64,000 bases of DNA, taken from NCBI GenBank assembly GCA_965231005.1, contig OZ246405.1, positions 103,204 through 167,203 of the forward strand, in the 5' to 3' direction. This stretch comes from an uncultured Gammaproteobacteria bacterium. Lineage in GTDB: Bacteria; Patescibacteriota; Patescibacteriia; Magasanikbacterales; UBA922. Shown one piece after another: positions 3,746 to 59,253 of the stretch. The stretch's first letter is position 1. Each line of letters begins with the position of its first letter. The translations under genes and the position numbers were made by a program. The notes beneath the pieces were generated by a model, which was not told the origin of the DNA, did no database searches, and worked only from the letters and a program-made list of their open reading frames with translations.

Positions 3746-4696
3746 ATGAAGCCGACACTTTTTGAAGAACTTCTTGCGCTCGGACGATTTCTGGAAGGCG
3801 AGCTTGGCAAGATCCCAAAGGTCCTGCTGATGACTGGCTCTGGCGAGAACGCAATCGGAGAAGCACTCGAAGGTCCGGAGAGCCTGAGATTCCAAGACAT
3901 ACCTGCCATGCAACGCATTCTGGAGGGCAAGCCCCCTCCCAAAGGGCATGGAAGGCGCCTTTTGAAGGGCAAACTTGGAGGAGAAGAAATTGTCGTTTCG
4001 CAAGGGCGATTGCACGGCTACGGTGGATTCAAAGGTCCTGAGATTGTGCTGCTTCAGCAAGCACTCATGCTCATGGGCGTGGAAATCATCTGCCTCAGCA
4101 ATGCTGCAGGTGGTGCAAGTCATCAGTACAAGAAGGGAGATCTGGCCCTGATCCAAGATCTGTGCCTGCTCTTTTGCAACAATCCACTCACAGGTGGAAA
4201 CGACAAACGACTTGGACCGCGAAATCCTCCTGTCGCACCCATGTTCTCCCCGAACCTGAGAGCATATGTTCATCGAATGGCTAAGCAGGCTGGAATTAAT
4301 CTGTCTCCTCACGAAGCAGATTACTTTCCAACATTCGGTCCCCAGTACGACACCCCCATGGATGTAAGGCTCGCAAACGGATGCGGTGCAACAGCAATCG
4401 GGATGTCGACTGTGCCAGCTGCAATTGCTGCTGCACACATGGGAGTACTCCGAATCGGATTCACCAAGATCACGAACATGTGCCCTGGTTACGAACCCAA
4501 GGGTCAGAACGACGAAGACAAGGAACTCGACCACAGTGGCGTGACTGACACCGGAGAAAGGATCACCGAAGAAAAACTCCTCCCGCTTCTCATCGCCATC
4601 CTTCCTGGACTGGTCGAAGCAGCTGGAAACGAGCTGATGATTCCTCGGTCACGACCCTACGCACGACTTCGCGCAGAAGGCTTCCCTGGCTACTAG
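3746..4696 (+). CDS. Purine nucleoside phosphorylase (PNP/MTAP family), encoded in a GC-rich island
   Basis: Motifs LLMTGSGEN, GRLHGYGGF and SNAAGG. Strong RBS AAGGAGGACACT before the ATG. GC content far above the flanks. Confidence 0.7.
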   Translation: MKPTLFEELLALGRFLEGELGKIPKVLLMTGSGENAIGEALEGPESLRFQDIPAMQRILEGKPPPKGHGRRLLKGKLGGEEIVVSQGRLHGYGGFKGPEIVLLQQALMLMGVEIICLSNAAGGASHQYKKGDLALIQDLCLLFCNNPLTGGNDKRLGPRNPPVAPMFSPNLRAYVHRMAKQAGINLSPHEADYFPTFGPQYDTPMDVRLANGCGATAIGMSTVPAAIAAAHMGVLRIGFTKITNMCPGYEPKGQNDEDKELDHSGVTDTGERITEEKLLPLLIAILPGLVEAAGNELMIPRSRPYARLRAEGFPGY

Positions 4697-4727
4697 TTCT
4701 TTTTGGAGACAACCGAACTTACGTTTC

Positions 4728-4765
4728 GAGGCGTACTACACTGTGGTACGCCTCTTTCTTTTTTA
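4728..4765 (+). terminator. Rho-independent terminator after the PNP gene
   Basis: GAGGCGTAC..GTACGCCTC stem followed by a T-run. Confidence 0.7.
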
Positions 4766-5119
4766 AACAATTAACAACTAACAATTAACAATTACCAACT
4801 TAGTATAGAAGATTTTTCGTCGAAAAGTATATTTTATATTATCTAATATCTACTATTTAATATCTAGTATTTTTAGTATAGGTTGCTCTCAACGTACAAA
4901 ACTTCTTTATATATTGCATGCGTTTATTCAATTTATCATCCATCCGGAATACAGATTCTATATATTAGATAATAGATAGTAGATATTAAAACTGTCCATA
5001 TTCTTTAAGAATTTTTCTATGCTAGTTTGTTAGTTGCTAATTGTTAATTGCTAATTTCTTTTTGTGAATATATAATTGAACTAAGCCGATCCCTCGGCAC
5101 ATATCATTAATATAATCAT

Positions 5120-5212
5120 ATGGAATGCACATATTGTGGCGCGCCAGTTGAAGAATTTGCGTGCTATGACTGTGAAGCCTGCGAAGGATGTGGATGCATG
5201 TGTGATAAGTAA
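5120..5212 (+). CDS. 30-aa cysteine-rich peptide MECTYCGAPVEEFACYDCEACEGCGCMCDK (8 Cys); apparently leaderless
   Basis: In-frame ATG..TAA. TATAAT sits 4 nt before the ATG with no SD sequence. Its own hairpin terminator follows directly. Below the size cutoff of the ORF track. Confidence 0.4.
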   Translation: MECTYCGAPVEEFACYDCEACEGCGCMCDK

Positions 5213-5235
5213 TCCATGCAGGAACTCTGTATACC

Positions 5236-5268
5236 AAAACAAGCCCGGATAAGGCTTGTTTTGTTTTT
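5236..5268. terminator. Bidirectional rho-independent terminator (Cys-peptide gene / convergent hrpA)
   Basis: AACAAGCC cggata AGGCTTGTT hairpin with an A-run before and a T-run after. Confidence 0.65.
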
Positions 5269-5326
5269 AAAAAAAATGACAGTAGAGCCAATAAAAGTCT
5301 CTTAAATTTTTTTGCCTTTTTGCCTT

Positions 5327-12279: not shown

Positions 12280-12468
12280 ATGAGTAAGGTCAGCAATGCG
12301 ATGAAGCAAAATCGCAAACGAAGACGCAACGGATATTGGATTTGTAGCACTGAACATTGGTTTCCAAGGCTGCGAGAACGCAGAAAGTGTGGACAGGTCA
12401 ATCATCCCGGAACTTCTCACTGCTACTACTGTGGTTCGAGAAAACCCAGATCCCAACGGAGGAAGTGA
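12280..12468 (+). CDS. Tiny basic zinc-ribbon protein A (62 aa; YWIC-x14-CG-x8-HCYYCG)
   Basis: RBS GGAGGTGGCC then ATG. C4 pattern. Stop TGA overlaps the next ATG (TGATG). Confidence 0.5.
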   Translation: MSKVSNAMKQNRKRRRNGYWICSTEHWFPRLRERRKCGQVNHPGTSHCYYCGSRKPRSQRRK

Positions 12469-12692
12469 TGACGAAGAAAAAACGCCCTGGTCGCACTGTC
12501 AGAAAACGCGGGCGCAAGCCTGTCCGAACCAAGCCAGATGGTGGCAAGCTGCCCTGGGGTCGAAGTACTCCGCAGGAACGCCGACTCAACCGTCTGATCA
12601 AAAGAGGGGTCGTGAAAAAGCCCGAACCCCTCAAAAAGCGGGTCCAAAGGCGAACGCATCTTCGCGTCGTCCGAGATGGAGACCGCTGGTGA
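12468..12692 (+). CDS. Extremely basic (Arg/Lys-rich) 74-aa protein B, translationally coupled to A
   Basis: ATG overlaps the stop of A by 1 nt. About 40% K/R content. Confidence 0.45.
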   Translation: MTKKKRPGRTVRKRGRKPVRTKPDGGKLPWGRSTPQERRLNRLIKRGVVKKPEPLKKRVQRRTHLRVVRDGDRW

Positions 12693-12729
12693 AAAAAACG
12701 AGGGTTGTGCCTCGTATTGGGAGAAGCCG

Positions 12730-12954
12730 ATGAAAACCAACGAACGACTGATCCGCGCAACCCGCGGAGTCATTGCTGCAACTCGCAGAGGTCCACGCCC
12801 GAAGGTGAAGGGAAAGTCCAAGACGATTCCCTACTGGGTTTGCGAAAAATTCCGCAAGGAAGAAGACACTGAGCCGTGCGGTGCGCACAACTCCATGAAC
12901 GACAAGCGCTGTGTGACCTGTGGCAAAAAGCGCCCAAAGAGAAAGAAAAAGTGA
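12730..12954 (+). CDS. Tiny basic zinc-ribbon protein C (74 aa; YWVC-x11-CG-x8-CVTCG)
   Basis: GGGAGAAG RBS 5 nt before the ATG. Same zinc-ribbon module as A. An alternative upstream ATG lies at 12676. Confidence 0.5.
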   Translation: MKTNERLIRATRGVIAATRRGPRPKVKGKSKTIPYWVCEKFRKEEDTEPCGAHNSMNDKRCVTCGKKRPKRKKK

Positions 12955-13124
12955 GCGAGCATCCAGTTGAAAAAAACGTCAACAAAGACGCTGAAGTTGG
13001 ACTCGCTTCTGATGACGAAGCATACTGGATTTGCTCTGCAAAAATCGACGATGTAGTCTGCTGCCACTGCAACTACGACAGTGATGAGCATTGTATCCGG
13101 TGTGGCGGACCAAAAGCGAACTAG
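12951..13124 (+). CDS. Small zinc-ribbon protein D (57 aa, acidic N-terminus; YWIC-x8-CCHC-x7-CIRCG); GTG start overlapping stop of C
   Basis: GTGA start/stop overlap. Third copy of the YW[IV]C zinc-ribbon module. Confidence 0.4.
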   Translation: MSEHPVEKNVNKDAEVGLASDDEAYWICSAKIDDVVCCHCNYDSDEHCIRCGGPKAN

Positions 13125-25635: not shown

Positions 25636-26661
25636 CTAGAAAATCCCCATGAAAGCAGCGGTACAGAACGCAAGCCACAGCACGATCTTGATCACACTCT
25701 CTGTCCGGGTGAGCGTCCAGTCCGTGATCATGAAAACCACGGCGAACACTGTTGACCCAGCCAGGCAGTACAGAATCCACTGCGAGTGCACCCACTCCAT
25801 CTGGATACCGCCCATCCATGCCACCGGAACACCGAGACAGATCAGGATATCAAATGAGTTGGATGCAAACGCGTTTGCGATGGCACCATCCGCATCACCA
25901 CGCTTGGCAGCAAGTACCGAGATCAGCGCGTCCGGCAGTGATGTCGCAGCCGCCAAGATCGTGACGCCAAGCACCGCCTCGGACATGCCATAGTGATGCG
26001 CGAGCTCGAGCCCGGCCTCGACCATGAAGTGACATCCGACACCGATGAGAGCGATGGTGACGAGCGCAAATCCGATGTGCTTGATGACGCTCCCCTCAAC
26101 CTTCTCGTCGCTGCTGTAATTCCAGCTTTGGACGATCAGACCGATGATGTACACCACGTACATGCCGATCATCACCCAGCCTTCCCAGCCGCTCAAGAGG
26201 TGGTAGCCGTCGCCGTTCGCTTTGCCGAAGTAGAGCGCACCGATGAAGAACGCCACGACCAGCAGATACATGACACCGTCGCGCTTGACCACGCTGTGGT
26301 GCACGGGCAGGCCACCGGTCGCGAATGACGAGAGCGCCGGAATCACCAGGATGTTGAAGAGGGCAGAGCCAGCGATGGCACCTGCACCTGCCTCGAACGA
26401 TCCAGCCATCAGCGCTGCGACGACAGTGAAGAACTCCGGCGAACTGCTGCTCACCGCGTCCAAGGTCGCGCCACGCACGCTCGGTGCGATGTTGAAACGC
26501 TTCCCAATCCAGTCGGTCTGCTCGCTAAGCAGTTCGCTGACTTTCCAGATTAGGATGGTGCAGACTAACACCGTTGCAATTGAAATGAACATGTGACCTC
26601 CCAGGCCGTTCGTCCGAAGAAAATATTCCCGTCGGGTCAAAAAAGTCAAAATATTCAACAA
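25636..26661 (-). CDS. CaCA-family cation/Ca2+ exchanger (YrbG-like), GC-rich island
   Basis: Two alpha-repeat regions (GATLDAVSSSSPEF.. and GVTILAAATSLPDALISV). GC content far above the flanks. Probable start MFISIATV after a GGGAGGTCAC RBS. Confidence 0.75.
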   Translation of the reverse strand: MLNILTFLTRREYFLRTNGLGGHMFISIATVLVCTILIWKVSELLSEQTDWIGKRFNIAPSVRGATLDAVSSSSPEFFTVVAALMAGSFEAGAGAIAGSALFNILVIPALSSFATGGLPVHHSVVKRDGVMYLLVVAFFIGALYFGKANGDGYHLLSGWEGWVMIGMYVVYIIGLIVQSWNYSSDEKVEGSVIKHIGFALVTIALIGVGCHFMVEAGLELAHHYGMSEAVLGVTILAAATSLPDALISVLAAKRGDADGAIANAFASNSFDILICLGVPVAWMGGIQMEWVHSQWILYCLAGSTVFAVVFMITDWTLTRTESVIKIVLWLAFCTAAFMGIF

Positions 26662-26752: not shown

Positions 26753-26846
26753 TGCTCCTCCGGCAGGATTCGAACCTGCGACATCAACGTTAACCCCGAT
26801 AGCATTCGCTACGCTCATGTCAATCGGGACACAGCAGCGTGGCTCT
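26753..26846 (-). pseudogene. Degenerate partial copy of tRNA-Asn (3' two-thirds) with roughly 40-nt insertion
   Basis: About 80% identity to the tRNA-Asn acceptor-3', T-arm and anticodon-3' region (GCAGGTTCGAATCCTGCCGGAGGAGCA). It shares GCCACGCTG but cannot form an acceptor stem. Confidence 0.4.
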
Positions 26847-26852
26847 ATTTTG

Positions 26853-26926
26853 CTCCCCCGGTAGGACTCGAACCTACAAGCATCCACGTTAACAGCGTGG
26901 CGTTCTACCAATTGAACTACAGGGGA
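26853..26926 (-). tRNA. tRNA-Asn (anticodon GTT)
   Basis: Cloverleaf: acceptor UCCCCUG/CGGGGGA, D-stem GTTC/GAAC, anticodon stem CCACG/CGTGG with loop CUGUUAA, T-loop GGTTCGAGTCC, discriminator G. CCA is not encoded. Confidence 0.85.
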
Positions 26927-28454: not shown

Positions 28455-29213
28455 CTATGCAACAAGAGCTTGACTATCAAACCTGGCAACCTCCCAAACG
28501 AACTCTGCCCAATCAAGGACTGTTTCGATGTGCTTGGGAGTACCGAGCACGCGAAGCTCAGTCGTACCGAGAACAGTATTGCGGACAAACTCGTATCCCT
28601 GGTCGTCTGCGTGCTCAAGAAAATGATTCTCGTCACGAAAGATAATGGGCGGCACTTCTTGCGGAGCCATGCGTTCGTACAGCTGCAGACGCTTGCCATT
28701 GGAACTATCACCCATCTTCCTAAAGCGCGGCAGTCTTCTCTTGAGACGGTTACTCACCTGGACCTGATGGGCCAGATCTCTACAACCATAGTGGAAGTGA
28801 GTTCCAGCAACGCGGCACGCAGCACGGATCTTCCACTCTGGCATACTTGCTGCCATGGCAAGATACTTTGGATCTGGATAGATGTCATACGGCATATCTT
28901 CAGGAGCCGCCTCCATAGGAACGAGTAGCAGGCCCAGATACACAGCAACAGCTTCTCCTTGCTTCTTTGCTTTGTACAAACCAGCTCGCATTTCACTGAT
29001 ATTGGCGTATGGCTTTATCGGCCGAAACTCTACCTGACAACGCGAGAGTTCAAATGTCCACTCACCAGGAGCAAGCCTTGTCATGATCCTGAGAAACTCA
29101 ACTGCCTTCGGTGTTGGCAAGCCTGTTCTTGGATCTACAAGAAAGAACTCAAGTTCTGGACCAATGTACCCCACCCACTCTTGTTTGAAATGAACCTCGT
29201 TTGCAAAACCCAT
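28455..29213 (-). CDS. GCS2/YbdK-like carboxylate-amine ligase, short form (252 aa)
   Basis: GPELEFFLVD resembles the GxExE(F/Y)xLVD N-terminal motif. THFHYGC matches HVHVGC of YbdK. The C-terminal region is about 120 aa shorter than YbdK. GC-rich. Confidence 0.45.
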   Translation of the reverse strand: MGFANEVHFKQEWVGYIGPELEFFLVDPRTGLPTPKAVEFLRIMTRLAPGEWTFELSRCQVEFRPIKPYANISEMRAGLYKAKKQGEAVAVYLGLLLVPMEAAPEDMPYDIYPDPKYLAMAASMPEWKIRAACRVAGTHFHYGCRDLAHQVQVSNRLKRRLPRFRKMGDSSNGKRLQLYERMAPQEVPPIIFRDENHFLEHADDQGYEFVRNTVLGTTELRVLGTPKHIETVLDWAEFVWEVARFDSQALVA

Positions 29214-29580
29214 GATAACCTCCTTTCAGCACAGTTTTATGCTGGTCAATACCTGCACGCGCATTAACCAAAATAAAAAACTTCTCGTAATACCTGAGAA
29301 GTGTTTGAAGAACATAAACATCAGGTATTACAGATTGCGTAGTACCCACCACCAATTTTTAGAAATAATTACACGTGCATGCATATTATTTAGAAAATAT
29401 TTTTTAGGAATTCTATGAATATTACCACCAGGTCACCTAAATTTTTCACAACCAATATGACCAATAGTCCTCTTGTTATATTTTTGGAATCAATAACACC
29501 ATCCTCCTCTTCCAAACTGAATACTTCCTCCTGTCCTGGCAATAAAATTACATTTTGTCTCTTTTTCATACGCCATAAAC

Positions 29581-29613
29581 TTAAATAAAAACCACGGAGC
29601 GTACTCCGTGGAT
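29581..29613 (-). terminator. Rho-independent terminator after pspC-domain gene
   Basis: CCACGGAG cgta CTCCGTGG followed by TTTTTATTT on the minus strand. Confidence 0.7.
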
Positions 29614-29746
29614 GTTTATGTGTATGTGTTTTAACCAAACATTAACGGAGCACTAGTTTAAGTACCTTGCTCCAACGATGCGTTGTTAATATTTGATTTC
29701 TCATATGTATATACTATAGCCATTTAAACTATTGTTGTCAAACGAA

Positions 29747-29971
29747 CTATACAACCTCCCCATCTATTACAGATGGATCACCTTTTTCTGGAATAAGCCA
29801 GTATGCAATGAGGTAGAGAATGACAAGAGGAAAAAATCCTGTCAGTAATATGCCAAGCGCAAAAATGATTCGAACGACATTTGGATCGACTTTGAAATAT
29901 TCTGCGATCCCACCACAAACTCCTCCAATGAGTTTGTGTTTTTTTGATCTATATAGTTTTTTCATAAACAA
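29747..29971 (-). CDS. PspC-domain membrane protein
   Basis: KLIGGVCGGIAEYF motif; 74 aa. Confidence 0.7.
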   Translation of the reverse strand: MFMKKLYRSKKHKLIGGVCGGIAEYFKVDPNVVRIIFALGILLTGFFPLVILYLIAYWLIPEKGDPSVIDGEVV

Positions 29972-29981
29972 ATAAATTATA

Positions 29982-39974: not shown

Positions 39975-40022
39975 AAGTATAGAAAATCGTCAAGTATTTG
40001 TCTATGAAGAATAGAGTAGCCT

Positions 40023-40496
40023 GTGTACGAAATACCCCTTATTTTAAACAAAAGTGAAAAAAACAGGCACTTTTTGCGAATTCTTTTGACAAAAAAATAT
40101 CTGCACCTTATAGTGAATACACTATTATTAATCTCACTACATCTGCAAAAGGAGGCCAAACAACACAACCTACTACAAGAAATTTTAGAGGTTGTTATTT
40201 TTATTAAGGACAATGCTGTTTCTAAAGATGAATTCCAGGAATTTAGAAAAGAGGTAAATACTAAATTTAAAAAAATTGATGAAAGATTTGAGAAAGTAGA
40301 CGAAAGATTTGACCAGATTGATAAAAGATTCGAGAAAGTAGACGAAAGATTTGACCAGATTGATAAAAGATTCGAGAAAGTAGACGAAAAATTTAGACAA
40401 ACAGAAAATACAATCATTCATCATGTAGATGGACTTATTAAACTTCACACAAATCTTGAATCGAAAGTCAGAAAACTTGCATTGAGAAAAAATTAA
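40023..40496 (+). CDS. Coiled-coil protein with 14-aa tandem repeats (IDKRFEKVDERFDQ) x about 2.7; start uncertain
   Basis: 42-nt DNA tandem repeat at 40278-40400. A consensus promoter (TTGACA-17-TATAGT, 40086-40114) lies inside the annotated ORF, so the true start is unclear. Confidence 0.4.
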   Translation: MYEIPLILNKSEKNRHFLRILLTKKYLHLIVNTLLLISLHLQKEAKQHNLLQEILEVVIFIKDNAVSKDEFQEFRKEVNTKFKKIDERFEKVDERFDQIDKRFEKVDERFDQIDKRFEKVDEKFRQTENTIIHHVDGLIKLHTNLESKVRKLALRKN

Positions 40497-40520
40497 TTCA
40501 AAAAAACAAATAACATAATA

Positions 40521-40557
40521 AAAACACCTCGCCGCATTGGCGAGGTGTTTTGTGTTT
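40521..40557. terminator. Bidirectional rho-independent terminator
   Basis: ACACCTCGCC gcat TGGCGAGGTGT followed by TTTGTGTTT. Confidence 0.7.
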
Positions 40558-40981
40558 CCTGATCTATATGCTGACAAGCAAGATGTAGATCAGTCTCTCA
40601 CTGCTAGCAACAGCCAGACAAGGCGTATTGCGGGGAGAGAGTGCGAGTGTTTGTACTCACAAACCGTAATATGTATTGTACTGGCTGAAGCCAGCAGTGG
40701 GATAGGAAGTCTTCCCTCACTCCCCCTCTTGTAAAAAAGAGGAAGAGAGTTGGGTTGCGGACGATGGGTTTGAATACATCGTCCGCGAAACCCTCCTTGA
40801 TGAGATTCTGCTGCCGAGGCTTCGTCCTTTCAGACTAGAGGAACATCAATCACCCCTAAATGCTGTTTATGTCATCCACACAACTTCCGCCATCCCGAAG
40901 TGTGCTTCTCTATCAAGTCATTAATCTCCTGTATCGCGTTGCGATGAGTTGTTGAGCCGGACGAACCGACGAGCGGTTGAA

Positions 40982-41806
40982 CTACGCGGCGATCGCGGTG
41001 TCGGACGTGTTGGACGAGGTGTCGGGCTTGGTGGTGTCGGTCTCGAAGTTGGACGACCGACGGGGGATCTCACCGACCGGACCGCGCGGCTGGAACGTGA
41101 TCTCGTCCTGCCGCTTGGCGCCGAACCAGTTCACGCACTGCGAGCGCAGCTCGCCGTACTCGTTGCGCGGGTCGACGCGGATCGGACCGAGGTTGCCGTT
41201 GCGACCGAGGTGCTCACGACGCGTGGCCTCGAACTGCTCGTTCTCGCGCTGCCGACGCTTGTTCACGAAGTTCCGACGACGCGCGCGCTGCTTCTGCCGA
41301 TCCTGCCCCTTGCCGTTGCGCTTGGCCTCGCGCTCGCGCTGCTCAGCCGCCTTCTCCGCCTCCTCCGCCTTGATGTCGGCGACGAAGTCGTCGTAGGTGA
41401 ACGAGAAACGCTCGCACAGCTGGCGGAGCTTGTCCTGATCACCGGCGAAGTAGGCCCGACGACACGCACGGATCGCGCGCTGCAGGTCATGCTCGCGCTC
41501 GCGCATGGTACGCTGGTCGTCCTTCAGGCGCTGCTGGATCTGGGCCTCGCGGACCGCTTCCTTCAGCTCCGTCAGCTTCAGCCCCTTGATCTCGTCATCG
41601 GACATGCCAGCCTGGACGGCCTTGTTCTGCCAGTAGGACGTGGTGCGCTTGTCCGTGGACACGCCGGCCAGGCCCTTGAACATGTTCGGATCGGGCGCGA
41701 GCTCGGACATCTTGACACGCTTCAGACGCGGCGCCATGGACTTGACGTTGACGCGCTTGACGTTGGGGCGCTTGTTGGACGTGCTCTTCTTGCTGCTGCT
41801 AGCCAT
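40982..41806 (-). CDS. Highly charged (K/R/E/D/Q-rich) 274-aa hypothetical protein in a 65% GC segment
   Basis: RBS GGAGAAGAAAA then ATG (MASSSKKSTS...). Coiled-coil-like charged repeats. The antisense 325-aa ORF is Leu/Arg/Val/Gly/Ala-rich, as expected for antisense translation of a GC-rich charged-residue gene. Confidence 0.45.
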   Translation of the reverse strand: MASSSKKSTSNKRPNVKRVNVKSMAPRLKRVKMSELAPDPNMFKGLAGVSTDKRTTSYWQNKAVQAGMSDDEIKGLKLTELKEAVREAQIQQRLKDDQRTMREREHDLQRAIRACRRAYFAGDQDKLRQLCERFSFTYDDFVADIKAEEAEKAAEQREREAKRNGKGQDRQKQRARRRNFVNKRRQRENEQFEATRREHLGRNGNLGPIRVDPRNEYGELRSQCVNWFGAKRQDEITFQPRGPVGEIPRRSSNFETDTTKPDTSSNTSDTAIAA

Positions 41807-42380
41807 TTTTCTTCTCCGTTGAAATGGCAACCTATGTGTAAACTCGGTCTGAGTTCTATAGCGCACCAATCCAGGCACGCCAACCACTGTTTTCTTTCAT
41901 GCACCGTGCAATCAGATAAACACTAGGAGTTCGGTAAATCCCCCCAGCGTATACACCTATGGCTAGGCATACGTTGGGAGAATTTTCCTCAGCAACAATT
42001 GTTGACTTGATATGGAAAGAACGTTTGTTTGTTTGAGTTTGATTCAACAGAGAAGAGCGACGGACGTGTTGGGCAGGTAATATATTTTGTCCCTCAGCTG
42101 TTCGCTCTTTTCTGTTACCTCAAACATACTCTTTCTGCAATCCGGCCTTTAGGCCGGAAAACAAAACACCTTCTTGGTAGAAGGTGTGATGCGAAATGCT
42201 TGAATTTCACTATCTTGTTTATTCGAGTGTGAAACAAGATAATGTACATTTCCACCAATCCTCTCTCCAGAGATGATGAATAGTTGGGTTGTAAGGGCCG
42301 TACCTACGACAAACTCTTTTTGATTTTTAACAGCACAGTATAACACAAAAAAAAGGTTTTGTCAAGACCCTTCCCTGCTT

Positions 42381-42412
42381 GAAAAAATAAAAAAATGGCT
42401 ATACTAAGCCAA
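42381..42412 (-). terminator. Rho-independent terminator after ftsW/rodA-type gene (second of two hairpins)
   Basis: TGGCTTAGTATAGCCA followed by TTTTTTTATTTTTT on the minus strand. Preceded by a CTTGGCT..AGCCAAG hairpin. Confidence 0.7.
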
Positions 42413-42473
42413 ATATTTAGTAATCCTTGGCTACACTAAGCCAAGTTTTATTAATAATGTTCCCTCTAGGAAA

Positions 42474-43577
42474 TCACCGCTTTCCAGACAACACAACGCT
42501 TTGCACTATTCCAATCATTGCAAAATTAATCAAAAGTGAAGAACCACCATAACTAATAAAAGGAAGAGTCAATCCAGTCACAGGAAGTAGACCAACAGTG
42601 GCTCCAATATTAACAATCATTTGAATAAAAAAGAAAAGTAACACTCCCAACACAACATAGGCAGAAAAATCATCTCTTGTTTGGCGTGCTATGGAAAGAA
42701 GACGCCACAAAAGTAAAAAATATAATCCCAAAACAAGTCCTACACCAATAAATCCAAGCTCTTCCCCAATAACTGCAAATATAAAGTCAGTATGTGCTTC
42801 TGGCAAAAAATGTAATTGACTCTGAGAACCAAAACCAAGTCCCCTTCCAAAAAATCTTCCAGCACCAATTGCAATCATTGACTGCTGCACATTATATCCT
42901 GCACCAAGCGGATCACGCTCAGGTTGCAAAAACGTGACAAGACGATCTTTTTGATATGGTGCAAAAATAAAAAACCATCCGATAATAAATAATAGTAATC
43001 CTGATCCAAGAATATATCCAATGTATCTTTTTTTTGTTCCAGTCAACACAAGAGATCCAAACCATATTGCAGCAATAATTAATGCTGAACCAAAATCTGG
43101 TTGGAGCATAATAAGTGCAACAATACTGAACATAATCAATCCACTCGAAACAACAAATTGCCAACTATCAAATCGTCGATTGTATTTGTAAATCCAATTT
43201 GAAATAAAAAGAATAAAACCGAGTTTTGCAAACTCAGCCGGTTGAAAAGAAAAACCTCCAAACCGAAACCACCCTGTTGTTCCACGAATTGTTTGTCCCA
43301 AAAATAACACTGCAATTAAGAGAATCAAAGAAGCAACATAGAGCCATTGAGAAGCTGACTGGTACACACTTATATGGATAAATGATGCAACCAACAAAAC
43401 AATAATACCAAGTATGAGTGCTATTGACTGTGTTGGAAAATAAATAAGTGCCTCACCTTGGGAAAGGTCAACACTATAAATTGCTGCTAGTCCAATTGCC
43501 GTTAAAATAAAAACAAGGATCGCAAGTATCCAGTCAAATCTATAGACAAGAATGAATTTTCTTGAAAGGAGTGACAT
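42474..43577 (-). CDS. SEDS-family peptidoglycan glycosyltransferase (FtsW/RodA)
   Basis: 367 aa, 10 TM, conserved FLPEAHTDFIFAVIGEELGFIG loop. Confidence 0.85.
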   Translation of the reverse strand: MSLLSRKFILVYRFDWILAILVFILTAIGLAAIYSVDLSQGEALIYFPTQSIALILGIIVLLVASFIHISVYQSASQWLYVASLILLIAVLFLGQTIRGTTGWFRFGGFSFQPAEFAKLGFILFISNWIYKYNRRFDSWQFVVSSGLIMFSIVALIMLQPDFGSALIIAAIWFGSLVLTGTKKRYIGYILGSGLLLFIIGWFFIFAPYQKDRLVTFLQPERDPLGAGYNVQQSMIAIGAGRFFGRGLGFGSQSQLHFLPEAHTDFIFAVIGEELGFIGVGLVLGLYFLLLWRLLSIARQTRDDFSAYVVLGVLLFFFIQMIVNIGATVGLLPVTGLTLPFISYGGSSLLINFAMIGIVQSVVLSGKR

Positions 43578-43760: not shown

Positions 43761-46914
<3,154 letters not shown>

Positions 46915-51087: not shown

Positions 51088-51102
51088 TCCAACTTACAAC
51101 AT

Positions 51103-51140
51103 AAAACACCTCCGAGTATATCAGAGGTGTTTTTTTTATT
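51103..51140. terminator. Bidirectional rho-independent terminator
   Basis: ACACCTC cgagtatatcag AGGTGT followed by TTTTTTTT. Confidence 0.7.
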
Positions 51141-58416: not shown

Positions 58417-59253
58417 TTACAAATCTCGAACCTTTCGGATGAAATCAGCACACCACGGCCAGTGACATTCGTAGAGATACAAGTCGAACGCTTTCTCTTC
58501 TCCGACTGGAGGTGATTCAACAAGATCAAAGCGAACGTGGACATCTCCGAGTTGGTGGAATAGCAGTTCAGGAATGCTTGTGGCACCATGTTCTGTAGCA
58601 ACCACGACTCGAACCCACTGCGCATCGGGAAGTGCTTGAGCAAGCGCTTTCATTCCTTTTGCACGAGGAGTCATGATGACATCACAGGATTCAGCCAGCC
58701 GATCCAACTTTTTATCTTTTGCCCAAGCAAAGGAACGCATTCTTCCTTGCTTGTCACCGCGTGTACCGTCTGGGAACAGTTGAATGCAGATTTTACTGCC
58801 TGGGAAACGTTGAACGCCTGAACGAATCGCAGGGACTGCCTGCGTAGCATCACCTCGATCGACAAGGACACCCCCAAGCATTTTTACAGCCCAACCAAAT
58901 GGGCCCCTTTTCAGCTCGATCTTGCCAATAGGGATAAACAAATGCTTTTTGAAGAGTTTGTCCACTGCAGCAGCGTATTCTGGAAGTTCATGTGCAAATG
59001 GATGTGGGCCCCACACCACGACTGGCCGATCTGGATCTAAGCCCATCAAATTGACCTCGAGGATTACCTTGCGGCCAAAAGCGATGCGTAAGACAGGAGC
59101 GATCCATGGGCCCCACTGATGTGCAAACCAATTGGCATGTTTTGCCGAGAGGAACACACCAGATAGGAGCGCAAGCAACACAACAAGGCTGCTAATCATG
59201 AATGCGACTAATACACCGAAAAGAACCCGAAAAGCTCTTAAAAACGCCCTCAT
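58417..59253 (-). CDS. Membrane-anchored lysophospholipid acyltransferase-like protein (PlsC/LPLAT family), GC-rich (about 50%)
   Basis: FPDGTRGD matches acyltransferase motif III (FPEGTR). The N-terminal TM is present; the HxxxxD motif is not clearly conserved. Confidence 0.45.
   Translation of the reverse strand: MRAFLRAFRVLFGVLVAFMISSLVVLLALLSGVFLSAKHANWFAHQWGPWIAPVLRIAFGRKVILEVNLMGLDPDRPVVVWGPHPFAHELPEYAAAVDKLFKKHLFIPIGKIELKRGPFGWAVKMLGGVLVDRGDATQAVPAIRSGVQRFPGSKICIQLFPDGTRGDKQGRMRSFAWAKDKKLDRLAESCDVIMTPRAKGMKALAQALPDAQWVRVVVATEHGATSIPELLFHQLGDVHVRFDLVESPPVGEEKAFDLYLYECHWPWCADFIRKVRDL

Follow-up and report, generated by a model that had tools for sequence, protein, structure and literature searches.

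We analyzed a 64-kb stretch of DNA from contig OZ246405.1 (assembly GCA_965231005.1) of an uncultured bacterium that GTDB places in the Patescibacteriota. The whole stretch is called the window here, and the counts and null results given for the window refer to those 64 kb. Between the gene for RodA and a gene for a Zn-ribbon protein it contains a GC-rich core, made up of a structured leader, one open reading frame (ORF) for an orphan protein of 274 amino acids (aa) and a structured 3' region, with two inward-facing terminators of the host type at its edges. Read along the minus strand, the order of the parts is the end of RodA at 42474, tandem terminators, a promoter, about 170 nt, a terminator, the leader, the ORF, the 3' region and a bidirectional terminator (Table 1).

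Table 1. Features of the locus, in positions of the window. GC1, GC2 and GC3 are the GC contents of the three codon positions; z is fold stability against dinucleotide shuffles; MFE, minimum free energy.
Feature	Position	Strand	Details
Lineage-specific insertion, 2.5 kb	39975-42473		Interrupts the RodA, Zn-ribbon, L25 string that is contiguous in the relatives L004 and L006
AT-rich coiled-coil repeat gene	40023-40496	plus	29.5% GC; 42-bp tandem repeats; convergent with the foreign gene, part of the insertion
Bidirectional intrinsic terminator, host type	40521-40551	both	AAAACACCTC...GAGGTGTTTT; ends the plus-strand coiled-coil gene and the minus-strand foreign gene
Structured 3' non-coding region	40552-40981	minus	z = -5 to -7; -0.38 kcal/mol per nt; inverted repeat I2
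GC-rich foreign core, about 1.6 kb	~40559-42160 (borders approximate)	minus	GC 0.45-0.69 versus 0.30-0.35 on either side
Gene for the 274-aa orphan protein	40982-41806	minus	ATG start, TAG stop; GC1/2/3 0.62/0.44/0.90; periodicity limited to the ORF
Hairpin GCCAUUU/AAAUGGC	41802-41828	minus	Start codon paired, Shine-Dalgarno motif in the loop; in both the MFE and centroid folds
Shine-Dalgarno-like GGAGAAG	41811-41817	minus	From the sequence; 7 nt from GGAG to ATG
Structured 5' non-coding region	41829-42160	minus	z = -6.3; inverted repeat I1; hairpins ~41941-41981, long imperfect 42037-42125 and CCGGCCTTTAGGCCGG at 42143-42158
Putative transcript of ~170 nt	42158-42331	minus	From promoter and terminator positions; z = -3.3
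Intrinsic terminator	42166-42187	minus	9-bp stem and UUUUGUUUU; between the sole recognisable promoter and the foreign gene
Strong sigma-70-type promoter	42337-42365	minus	TTGACA-17-TATACT, extended -10 TG; 11/12 consensus matches
Tandem pair of similar terminator hairpins	42396-42445		Just downstream of RodA; RodA terminator at 42396-42411

A GC-rich core of foreign composition

The mean GC content of the window is 0.381. A 200-nt profile reaches its maximum for the window, 0.69, within 40601-41951, in agreement with an earlier note on this DNA that had placed the GC maximum here. The same note had taken all of 40560-42470 as foreign. By part, the ORF is 66% GC, the leader (41807-42160) 45% and the 3' region (40552-40981) 49%, with about 47% for the two flanks together. 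The stretch 42161-42473 is host-like at 35% GC and contains the strong minus-strand promoter and terminators. The foreign core is therefore smaller than first proposed, and its right flank is composite: 41807-42160 belongs to the core while 42161-42473 does not.

The foreign look of the segment is borne out by its codons. GC3 is 0.90 in the ORF versus 0.16-0.28 in the native genes of the window. Third positions are 47% C, 44% G, 9% T and 0.4% A, with a single A-ending codon among the 274. Codon usage and base composition thus deviate from those of the resident genome, as in horizontally acquired DNA. We tested the reading frame because GC-rich DNA gives long chance ORFs, including one of 325 aa on the plus strand. 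Coding periodicity starts and stops precisely at the borders of the minus-strand ORF. The plus-strand ORF was rejected as a gene, being a codon-aligned antisense shadow with GC highest at the first position (GC1 = 0.83-0.90). The minus-strand ORF is a genuine coding frame, as the note had read it, and its GGAGAAG ribosome-binding site was located at the expected place upstream of the ATG.

The encoded protein (31.7 kDa, pI 10.1, net charge +19) was rightly described as hyper-charged, as 37% of its residues carry a charge. Residues 1-50 account for a net charge of +10 and residues 161-202 for +11. In a single-sequence AlphaFold2 model, helices span residues 53-65, 78-121, 124-133 and 138-202, with pLDDT values of 80-96 over residues 51-200 and above 90 in the long helices. 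Disorder is predicted for the first 50 and the last 70 residues. The protein thus has a Lys/Arg-rich disordered arm (1-50), long helices (53-202) that contain an Arg-rich segment (161-202), and a disordered tail at the C-terminus. This architecture suggests a coiled-coil protein that may bind or condense nucleic acid.

The orphan protein is a strict singleton

No family match for the protein was found in Pfam, PHROGs, NCBIfam or PADLOC, and no sequence match in the PDB. A word-indexed search of 5.8 billion clusters returned the protein itself alone, both at E ≤ 0.01 and at E ≤ 10. An exhaustive phmmer search of 1.84 billion representatives also gave only the self-match. Nothing was found by tblastn against phages and plasmids, and back-translated pattern scans of GTDB genomes, IMG/VR and JGI metagenomes revealed no relative. 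Foldseek comparison of the AlphaFold2 model with BFVD and the PDB yielded non-specific helical matches only. Among about 15 billion proteins there was no eukaryotic or viral homologue. No homologue in a possible donor came to light, the protein and its DNA giving only the self-match in every protein and DNA collection searched. The view that it belongs to no recognisable bacterial family is upheld by these searches. A resemblance to nucleolar-type proteins of eukaryotes or viruses, also suggested before, finds no support in the comparisons of sequence and fold, including one with the hepatitis delta antigen described below.

The core lies in a lineage-specific insertion

The nearest species representatives are distant relatives, with only 42-55% identity in RodA; one of them is labelled Patescibacteria. 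In the relative L004 the gene order is p303, RodA, 16 bp, a Zn-ribbon protein, L25 and DUF3048. In L006, 58 bp separate RodA from the next gene, L25. The window has the same genes in the same order and on the same strand, but 2.5 kb (39975-42473) separates RodA from the Zn-ribbon gene. Since RodA, the Zn-ribbon gene where present and L25 are contiguous in both relatives, 39975-42473 is a lineage-specific insertion. It comprises an AT-rich part and the GC-rich core. Nothing like it is found at the syntenic locus of L004 or L006, and such absence from the orthologous site in relatives, here at 42-55% RodA identity, is characteristic of a genomic island.

Shine-Dalgarno motifs mark the GC-rich islands of the window

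A Shine-Dalgarno (SD) motif is missing from 35 of the 40 gene starts in the window. Four of the five starts that have one belong to genes in GC-rich islands: the orphan gene, a PNP-family gene (3746-4696), a GCS2 gene (28455-29213) and an acyltransferase gene (58417-59253). The fifth is a native gene with its motif too far upstream. In the Na_Ca_ex gene (GC3 0.74), GGGAGG lies five nt upstream of what is likely the true ATG, at 26592, and an operon for small, basic Zn-ribbon proteins (12281-13124) has GGAGG or GGAG ahead of each ATG. Every GC-elevated island gene of the window is thus SD-led (AAGGAGG or GGGAGG, 5-7 nt from the ATG), the other islands being 3746-4696, 12281-13124, 25636-26592, 28455-29213 and 58417-59253.

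GC3 in the islands ranges from 0.44 to 0.74, and up to 0.90 in the orphan gene. This looks like an amelioration series in which the orphan gene is the least ameliorated. The simplest reading is that an SD-independent host repeatedly took up genes from GC-richer, SD-using donors and that the orphan gene is the newest. An SD motif at ideal spacing in this gene and in all the other islands, and not in native genes, suggests a prokaryotic-type donor (a bacterium, phage or plasmid). The pattern argues against a eukaryotic source and also against a one-off assembly accident. An attempt to identify a donor through the Na_Ca_ex island failed, as the best matches of that gene are only 55-57% identical. 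In Patescibacteria, genomic islands and single-gene transfers are known to account for up to 13% of the genome (PMC12455944).

Structured non-coding flanks

Both flanks of the ORF lack coding periodicity and credible ORFs and carry hairpins, much as they had been described. The three hairpins quoted earlier fall at 40559-40593, 42143-42158 and 42166-42187, the last being the minus-strand intrinsic terminator. Relative to dinucleotide shuffles, fold stability has z values of -5 to -7.6, with -7.6 for 41790-42335, -6.35 for 40515-40990 and -6.3 for 41800-42160. Over segments of 150 nt the signal is concentrated in 40500-40870 and 42000-42300, and the coding sequence (CDS) has z of about 0 to +2. 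Hairpins of the 3' region lie at 40757-40786, about 40720-40748, 40596-40702 (107 nt) and 40559-40593. The hairpin at 41802-41828, which contains the start codon and the SD motif, is a possible translational control element. Both strands of the flanks fold about equally, with similar numbers of G-U pairs, so that the hairpins could act in RNA or in DNA.

We scanned the whole window with Rfam at the gathering threshold and 40400-42600 with Rfam 15 at E ≤ 10, on both strands. These scans revealed no Rfam family, no ribozyme and no group I or II intron in the flanks, and the idea that the flanks are non-coding RNA (ncRNA) gains nothing from them. There is no tRNA or tmRNA in the flanks either; the only tRNA of the window is far from the locus. 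No similarity connects the two flanks with each other or with other parts of the window, apart from a 16-nt GGCC hairpin that doubles as the terminator of a glutamine synthetase gene. Strong structure is also found in the intergenic regions 29214-29981 (z of about -5) and 4697-5326, which lies beside the PNP island and has the strongest structure in the window (z = -8.4). Therefore, an excess of structure is not by itself peculiar to this locus.

Terminators and a gokushovirus-type promoter border the core

The junctions had been reported to sit next to proper terminators, and both the bidirectional terminator at 40521-40551 and the RodA terminator at 42396-42411 were confirmed. The stem type of the former recurs at 51097-51135. 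The inward-facing terminators of the core have a common tail, AGGTGTTTTGT(G)TTTCC, in inverted orientation. This inverted match (40543-40559 with 42155-42171) is 16-17 nt long and was reached in 10 of 100 shuffles, not beyond chance. The tail is a common design of terminators in this genome and is also present at 51097-51135. For these reasons we do not take the match for a terminal inverted repeat of the core. Together, the bracketing terminators and a promoter of the host's own type support a genuine chromosomal context.

The promoter at 42337-42365 (CTTGACAAAACCTTTTTTTTGTGTTATACT) is similar to the one upstream of the Na_Ca_ex island gene. It is also identical over 30-31 nt, covering the -35, the 17-nt spacer and the -10, to intergenic promoters of gokushoviruses. 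The match extends over about 40 nt with 31 exact (BLAST E = 8e-6; window 42325-42366 versus 2169-2210 of L084 and 344-376 of L085). The matching phages are Dulem virus 93 (PP511516) and Human gut gokushovirus (KX513866), both Microviridae. The exact 30-mer was not found in IMG/VR. We rejected an origin from a gokushovirus prophage, as tblastx of the whole window against two gokushovirus genomes matched the promoter only, with no VP1 or VP4. The identity may hint that this bacterial lineage is connected with such phages as a host, or at a travelling promoter.

From the positions of this promoter and the terminator at 42166-42187, a transcript of about 170 nt is predicted, possibly a small RNA (sRNA) or an attenuating leader. 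It has a stable hairpin at 42208-42244 and no Rfam match. An ORF of 44-47 codons with an SD-like GGAGAGAGGA reads through its terminator.

The locus in independent assemblies

Logan assemblies of runs ERR2281800 and ERR2281801 agree fully (100% identity) with the host sequence. Their left-hand contigs extend to 40048 in ERR2281800 and to 40319 in ERR2281801, where the contig stops in the 42-bp tandem repeat. On the right, contig L001 of ERR2281800 reaches down to 42046, 115 nt into the intermediate-GC part of the core, and spans most of both arms of the hairpin at 42037-42125. As L001 extends past about 42160 into the core, the right junction is reproduced by a second assembler. Logan contigs also stop inside ordinary host genes, L001 itself ending at 44118, and their ends are therefore uninformative. 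Exact-product look-ups (the ORF as 274, 298 or 301 aa, the antisense ORF and two small flank ORFs) gave no independent Logan contig. A scan of JGI metagenomes for a 27-mer of the host terminator did not yield independent confirmation of the core.

Discussion

We favor, at slightly better than even chances, a very recent horizontal acquisition of an orphan basic coiled-coil gene, together with its own structured untranslated regions (UTRs), at a variable spot of a Patescibacteria-type genome. The GC-rich core would be newly acquired and would sit between convergent terminators of the host type, at a site that varies by lineage in a small, AT-rich genome, probably of the Patescibacteria type. 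Its product would combine a disordered arm rich in Lys and Arg with a long alpha-helical hairpin or coiled coil, which includes an arginine-rich helix, and with a disordered tail. The donor would be GC-richer and use SD-led translation; it may be a bacterium, although the complete absence of relatives makes a phage or plasmid of such a bacterium the likelier source. Having arrived with its own UTRs, the gene could be under translational control by the 5' series of stem-loops, the last of which would occlude the AUG, and the 3' stack of stable hairpins would stabilise or terminate the mRNA. Transcription would come only from read-through of the 42187-42166 terminator from the 42365-42337 promoter, or from an unrecognised promoter. 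With a terminator between promoter and gene, the gene may be weakly expressed or silent.

Several observations weigh against this acquisition. The island has no integrase, transposase, att duplication or tRNA; mobility signatures are common in genomic islands and not obligatory. No relative of the protein turned up in any collection searched, even at E ≤ 10, which is unexpected for an ordinary GC-rich bacterial gene. The flanks are only 45-49% GC, and spacers of a donor with a gene GC3 of 0.9 would be expected to be about 10 points higher. An intrinsic terminator parts the gene from the sole recognisable promoter. Finally, no independent assembly was found for 40320-42045.

The last point bears on whether the core is a chimera of assembly or gap closure, a fragment of some other GC-rich organism misplaced between true host neighbors. 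A composition without any amelioration would fit such an error, as would a singleton protein known from this record alone, the look-ups of the ORF forms and small flank ORFs that gave no Logan contig, and known Logan contigs that end at 40048 and 40319 on the left and 42046 on the right. However, two false junctions 1.6 kb apart would be needed within a 1.23-Mb contig, with the same operon resuming beyond, and no exact match between the two sides exceeds 11 nt, too short a k-mer to mislead an assembler. The right junction near 42160 recurs in L001, and the contig ends carry no information since L001 also ends in an ordinary gene. The chimera would, moreover, have to mimic by accident the pattern of SD-bearing, GC-rich islands of a single gene or small operon. 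We consider it unlikely. The same SD motifs at ideal spacing, here as in all the other islands, speak against a module from the mRNA-like gene (5' UTR, CDS, 3' UTR) of a eukaryote or eukaryotic virus. A GC3-rich CDS with intermediate-GC untranslated flanks is the pattern of many eukaryotes, and the A at -3 and G at +4 around the ATG, the basic N-terminus resembling a nuclear localization signal and the RanBP2-like zinc ribbons in another island of the window would all suit such a source. It is nonetheless highly improbable, as the segment has no poly(A) tract or signal, the protein no eukaryotic or viral homologue among the roughly 15 billion proteins, and the model no fold match in BFVD or the PDB.

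Two other explanations turn on the structured flanks. One is that only the CDS is foreign and that the flanks, or part of them, are ncRNA genes or regulatory RNAs of the host, such as an sRNA of about 170 nt from 42365-42337 to 42187-42166. Structured RNAs stand out as GC-richer in AT-rich genomes, a strong promoter and a terminator lie 170 nt apart with a fold z of -3.3 between them, and other long intergenic regions of the genome are strongly structured as well. Yet the whole stretch is missing at the syntenic site of the relatives, the flanks have no Rfam match, and the hairpin over the AUG ties the leader to the CDS. As precise entry of a bare CDS with its SD motif between two pre-existing RNA genes would also be required, we think this quite unlikely. 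The other is that the core is the remnant or integrated form of a minimal mobile or viral element, in which the hairpin clusters would serve as ends or origins, with the basic protein coating or chaperoning nucleic acid in the manner of a nucleocapsid or delta antigen. The unit of about 1.6 kb has a single ORF for a basic, Arg-rich helical protein, its dense stem-loop clusters on both sides are equally stable on either strand and so compatible with single-stranded DNA (ssDNA), orphan status is typical of viral genes, and the adjoining promoter is identical over 30-31 nt to that of ssDNA gokushoviruses. But neither the core nor its immediate neighborhood has a Rep, integrase, transposase or reverse transcriptase, and there is no ribozyme or Rfam family at E ≤ 10 and no rod-like fold. 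The protein has neither similarity to the delta antigen nor a fold match to viral protein models, the apparent terminal inverted repeat corresponds to the tail common to host terminators, gokushoviruses match the promoter only, and no second copy was found in the window, IMG/VR, JGI metagenomes or GTDB genomes. The low flank GC, the intervening terminator and the lack of relatives keep such an element in consideration at a low probability. Going further, the core could be a self-contained minimal element of Patescibacteria-type bacteria, with a nucleocapsid- or delta-antigen-like gene and hairpin-cluster termini as signals for replication, packaging or recombination. It would then represent an integrated copy of a satellite or mobile element of a new kind, and its position next to a gokushovirus-type promoter raises the possibility of a link with ssDNA phages. 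We regard this as very unlikely.

Comparison with known elements

Among known systems, a recent acquisition has its counterpart in the ORFan islets described in Patescibacteria (PMC12455944) and in bacteria generally. Like those islets, the core is a single gene without known function and of deviant composition, in an intergenic place flanked by terminators, is absent at the syntenic site of relatives and has other islands in the same genome. It differs in the extreme contrast of its composition (GC3 0.90 versus about 0.2) with no amelioration, in a protein that is a strict singleton among about 15 billion with no mobility genes, and in flanks that are unusually long (350-420 nt), dense in hairpins and of intermediate GC.

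The unit of about 1.6 kb, its high GC and its extensive non-coding RNA structure recall hepatitis delta and viroid-like elements. As with the hepatitis delta antigen, the product of the one ORF is basic, is about 200-270 aa long and combines coiled-coil with arginine-rich motifs. Unlike these elements, the core sits in chromosomal DNA and its hairpins are local, not genome-wide. We found no hepatitis delta virus, hammerhead, twister or hairpin ribozyme in the Rfam 15 scan (40400-42600, both strands, E ≤ 10). A rod was rejected too, since the long-range inverted repeats measure only 12-24 nt and lack collinearity, and an ORF of 66% GC cannot pair with flanks of 45-49%. Homology to the delta antigen was rejected with a one-to-one BLASTP E value of 0.96 against an antigen sequence, and with no match in the PDB or BFVD.

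In integron cassettes, as here, an apparently promoterless, deviant orphan ORF is followed by imperfect hairpins of 60-110 nt. The non-coding DNA of the core is far longer than in a cassette, however. The hairpins at 40596-40702 and 42037-42125 lack RYYYAAC ... GTTRRRY core sites when inspected by eye; the latter hairpin has GTTTGAT ... CTCAAAC, in the wrong order and off the attC consensus. No integron integrase or cassette array was seen among the neighboring genes scanned. As for an insertion sequence, a miniature inverted-repeat transposable element or another transposon, there is no transposase and no second copy in the window. We found no direct repeat, as would be left by target-site duplication, at the core borders. 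The suggestion that the flanks are remnants of a mobile element is thus not borne out, as the locus has no transposase, integrase, reverse transcriptase or target duplication and, apart from the tails of host-type terminators, no terminal inverted repeats. Gokushoviruses resemble the locus in that the phage promoter likewise adjoins a GC-rich, hairpin-rich non-coding stretch. The promoter alone is common to both, however, as capsid, pilot and replication genes are all missing from the window, whose DNA resembles theirs nowhere else.

If the segment is real, it would be among the cleanest "just arrived" genes in an ultra-small bacterial genome, unameliorated and with translation signals foreign to a host that does without SD motifs. 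Together with the other SD-bearing GC-rich islands, it would give a compositional fingerprint of DNA donors (GC-rich, SD-using) that could help to identify the physical partner or host of this bacterium. Its protein would be the first member of a new family of basic coiled-coil proteins. Should the segment prove to be a chimera, on the other hand, the 1.23-Mb genome as deposited would have to be corrected. Both outcomes would be of use, though neither changes a major concept, and the acquisition is most likely no new kind of system.

Other features of the window

The AT-rich gene in the left part of the insertion contains 2.9 copies of its 42-bp repeat, with the motif FEKVDERFDQIDKR. A good promoter (40086-40114) and an AAGGAGG (40150-40156) fall inside its longest ORF. 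The latter has no canonical in-frame start codon downstream, so the start of the gene is uncertain. Just upstream of the Zn-ribbon gene we saw by eye a promoter-like TAGACA-17-TATACT at 39983-40011 on the minus strand, which would allow the Zn-ribbon and L25 genes to be transcribed again once the insertion had separated both from RodA. For the Zn-ribbon protein, an internal Met (MGSKK...) is the probable true start.

The operon at 12281-13124 (plus strand, about 50-55% GC) codes for four small proteins, for which Pfam gave a single, weak match, to Zn_ribbon_RanBP. RanBP2-like zinc ribbons (W-x-C ... C-x3-N-x6-C-x2-C) occur in two or three of these proteins, and the operon includes an extremely basic protein of 74 aa (MTKKKRPGRTVRKRGRK...).

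Adjoining tRNA-Asn (26852-26926), the sequence TGCTCCTCCGGCAGGATTCGAACCTGCGACATCAACGTTAAC at 26757-26800 resembles the 3' half of a second tRNA, with T-arm and acceptor. It was called neither by ARAGORN with introns allowed nor by Rfam. Its place between tRNA-Asn and the Na_Ca_ex island is where one would expect an att-type remnant if the island had integrated at a tRNA gene. The Na_Ca_ex protein (25636-26661) gave no self-match in the search of 5.8 billion clusters in which the orphan protein did, suggesting that the deposited annotation may lack that gene or call it differently.

The intergenic region 4697-5326 owes its strong structure to AT-rich inverted repeats, with copies of 27 nt at 4844-4870 and 4962-4988, and contains a small cysteine-rich ORF at about 5113-5212 (MECTYCGAPVEEFACYDCEACEGCGCMCDK), spotted by eye.

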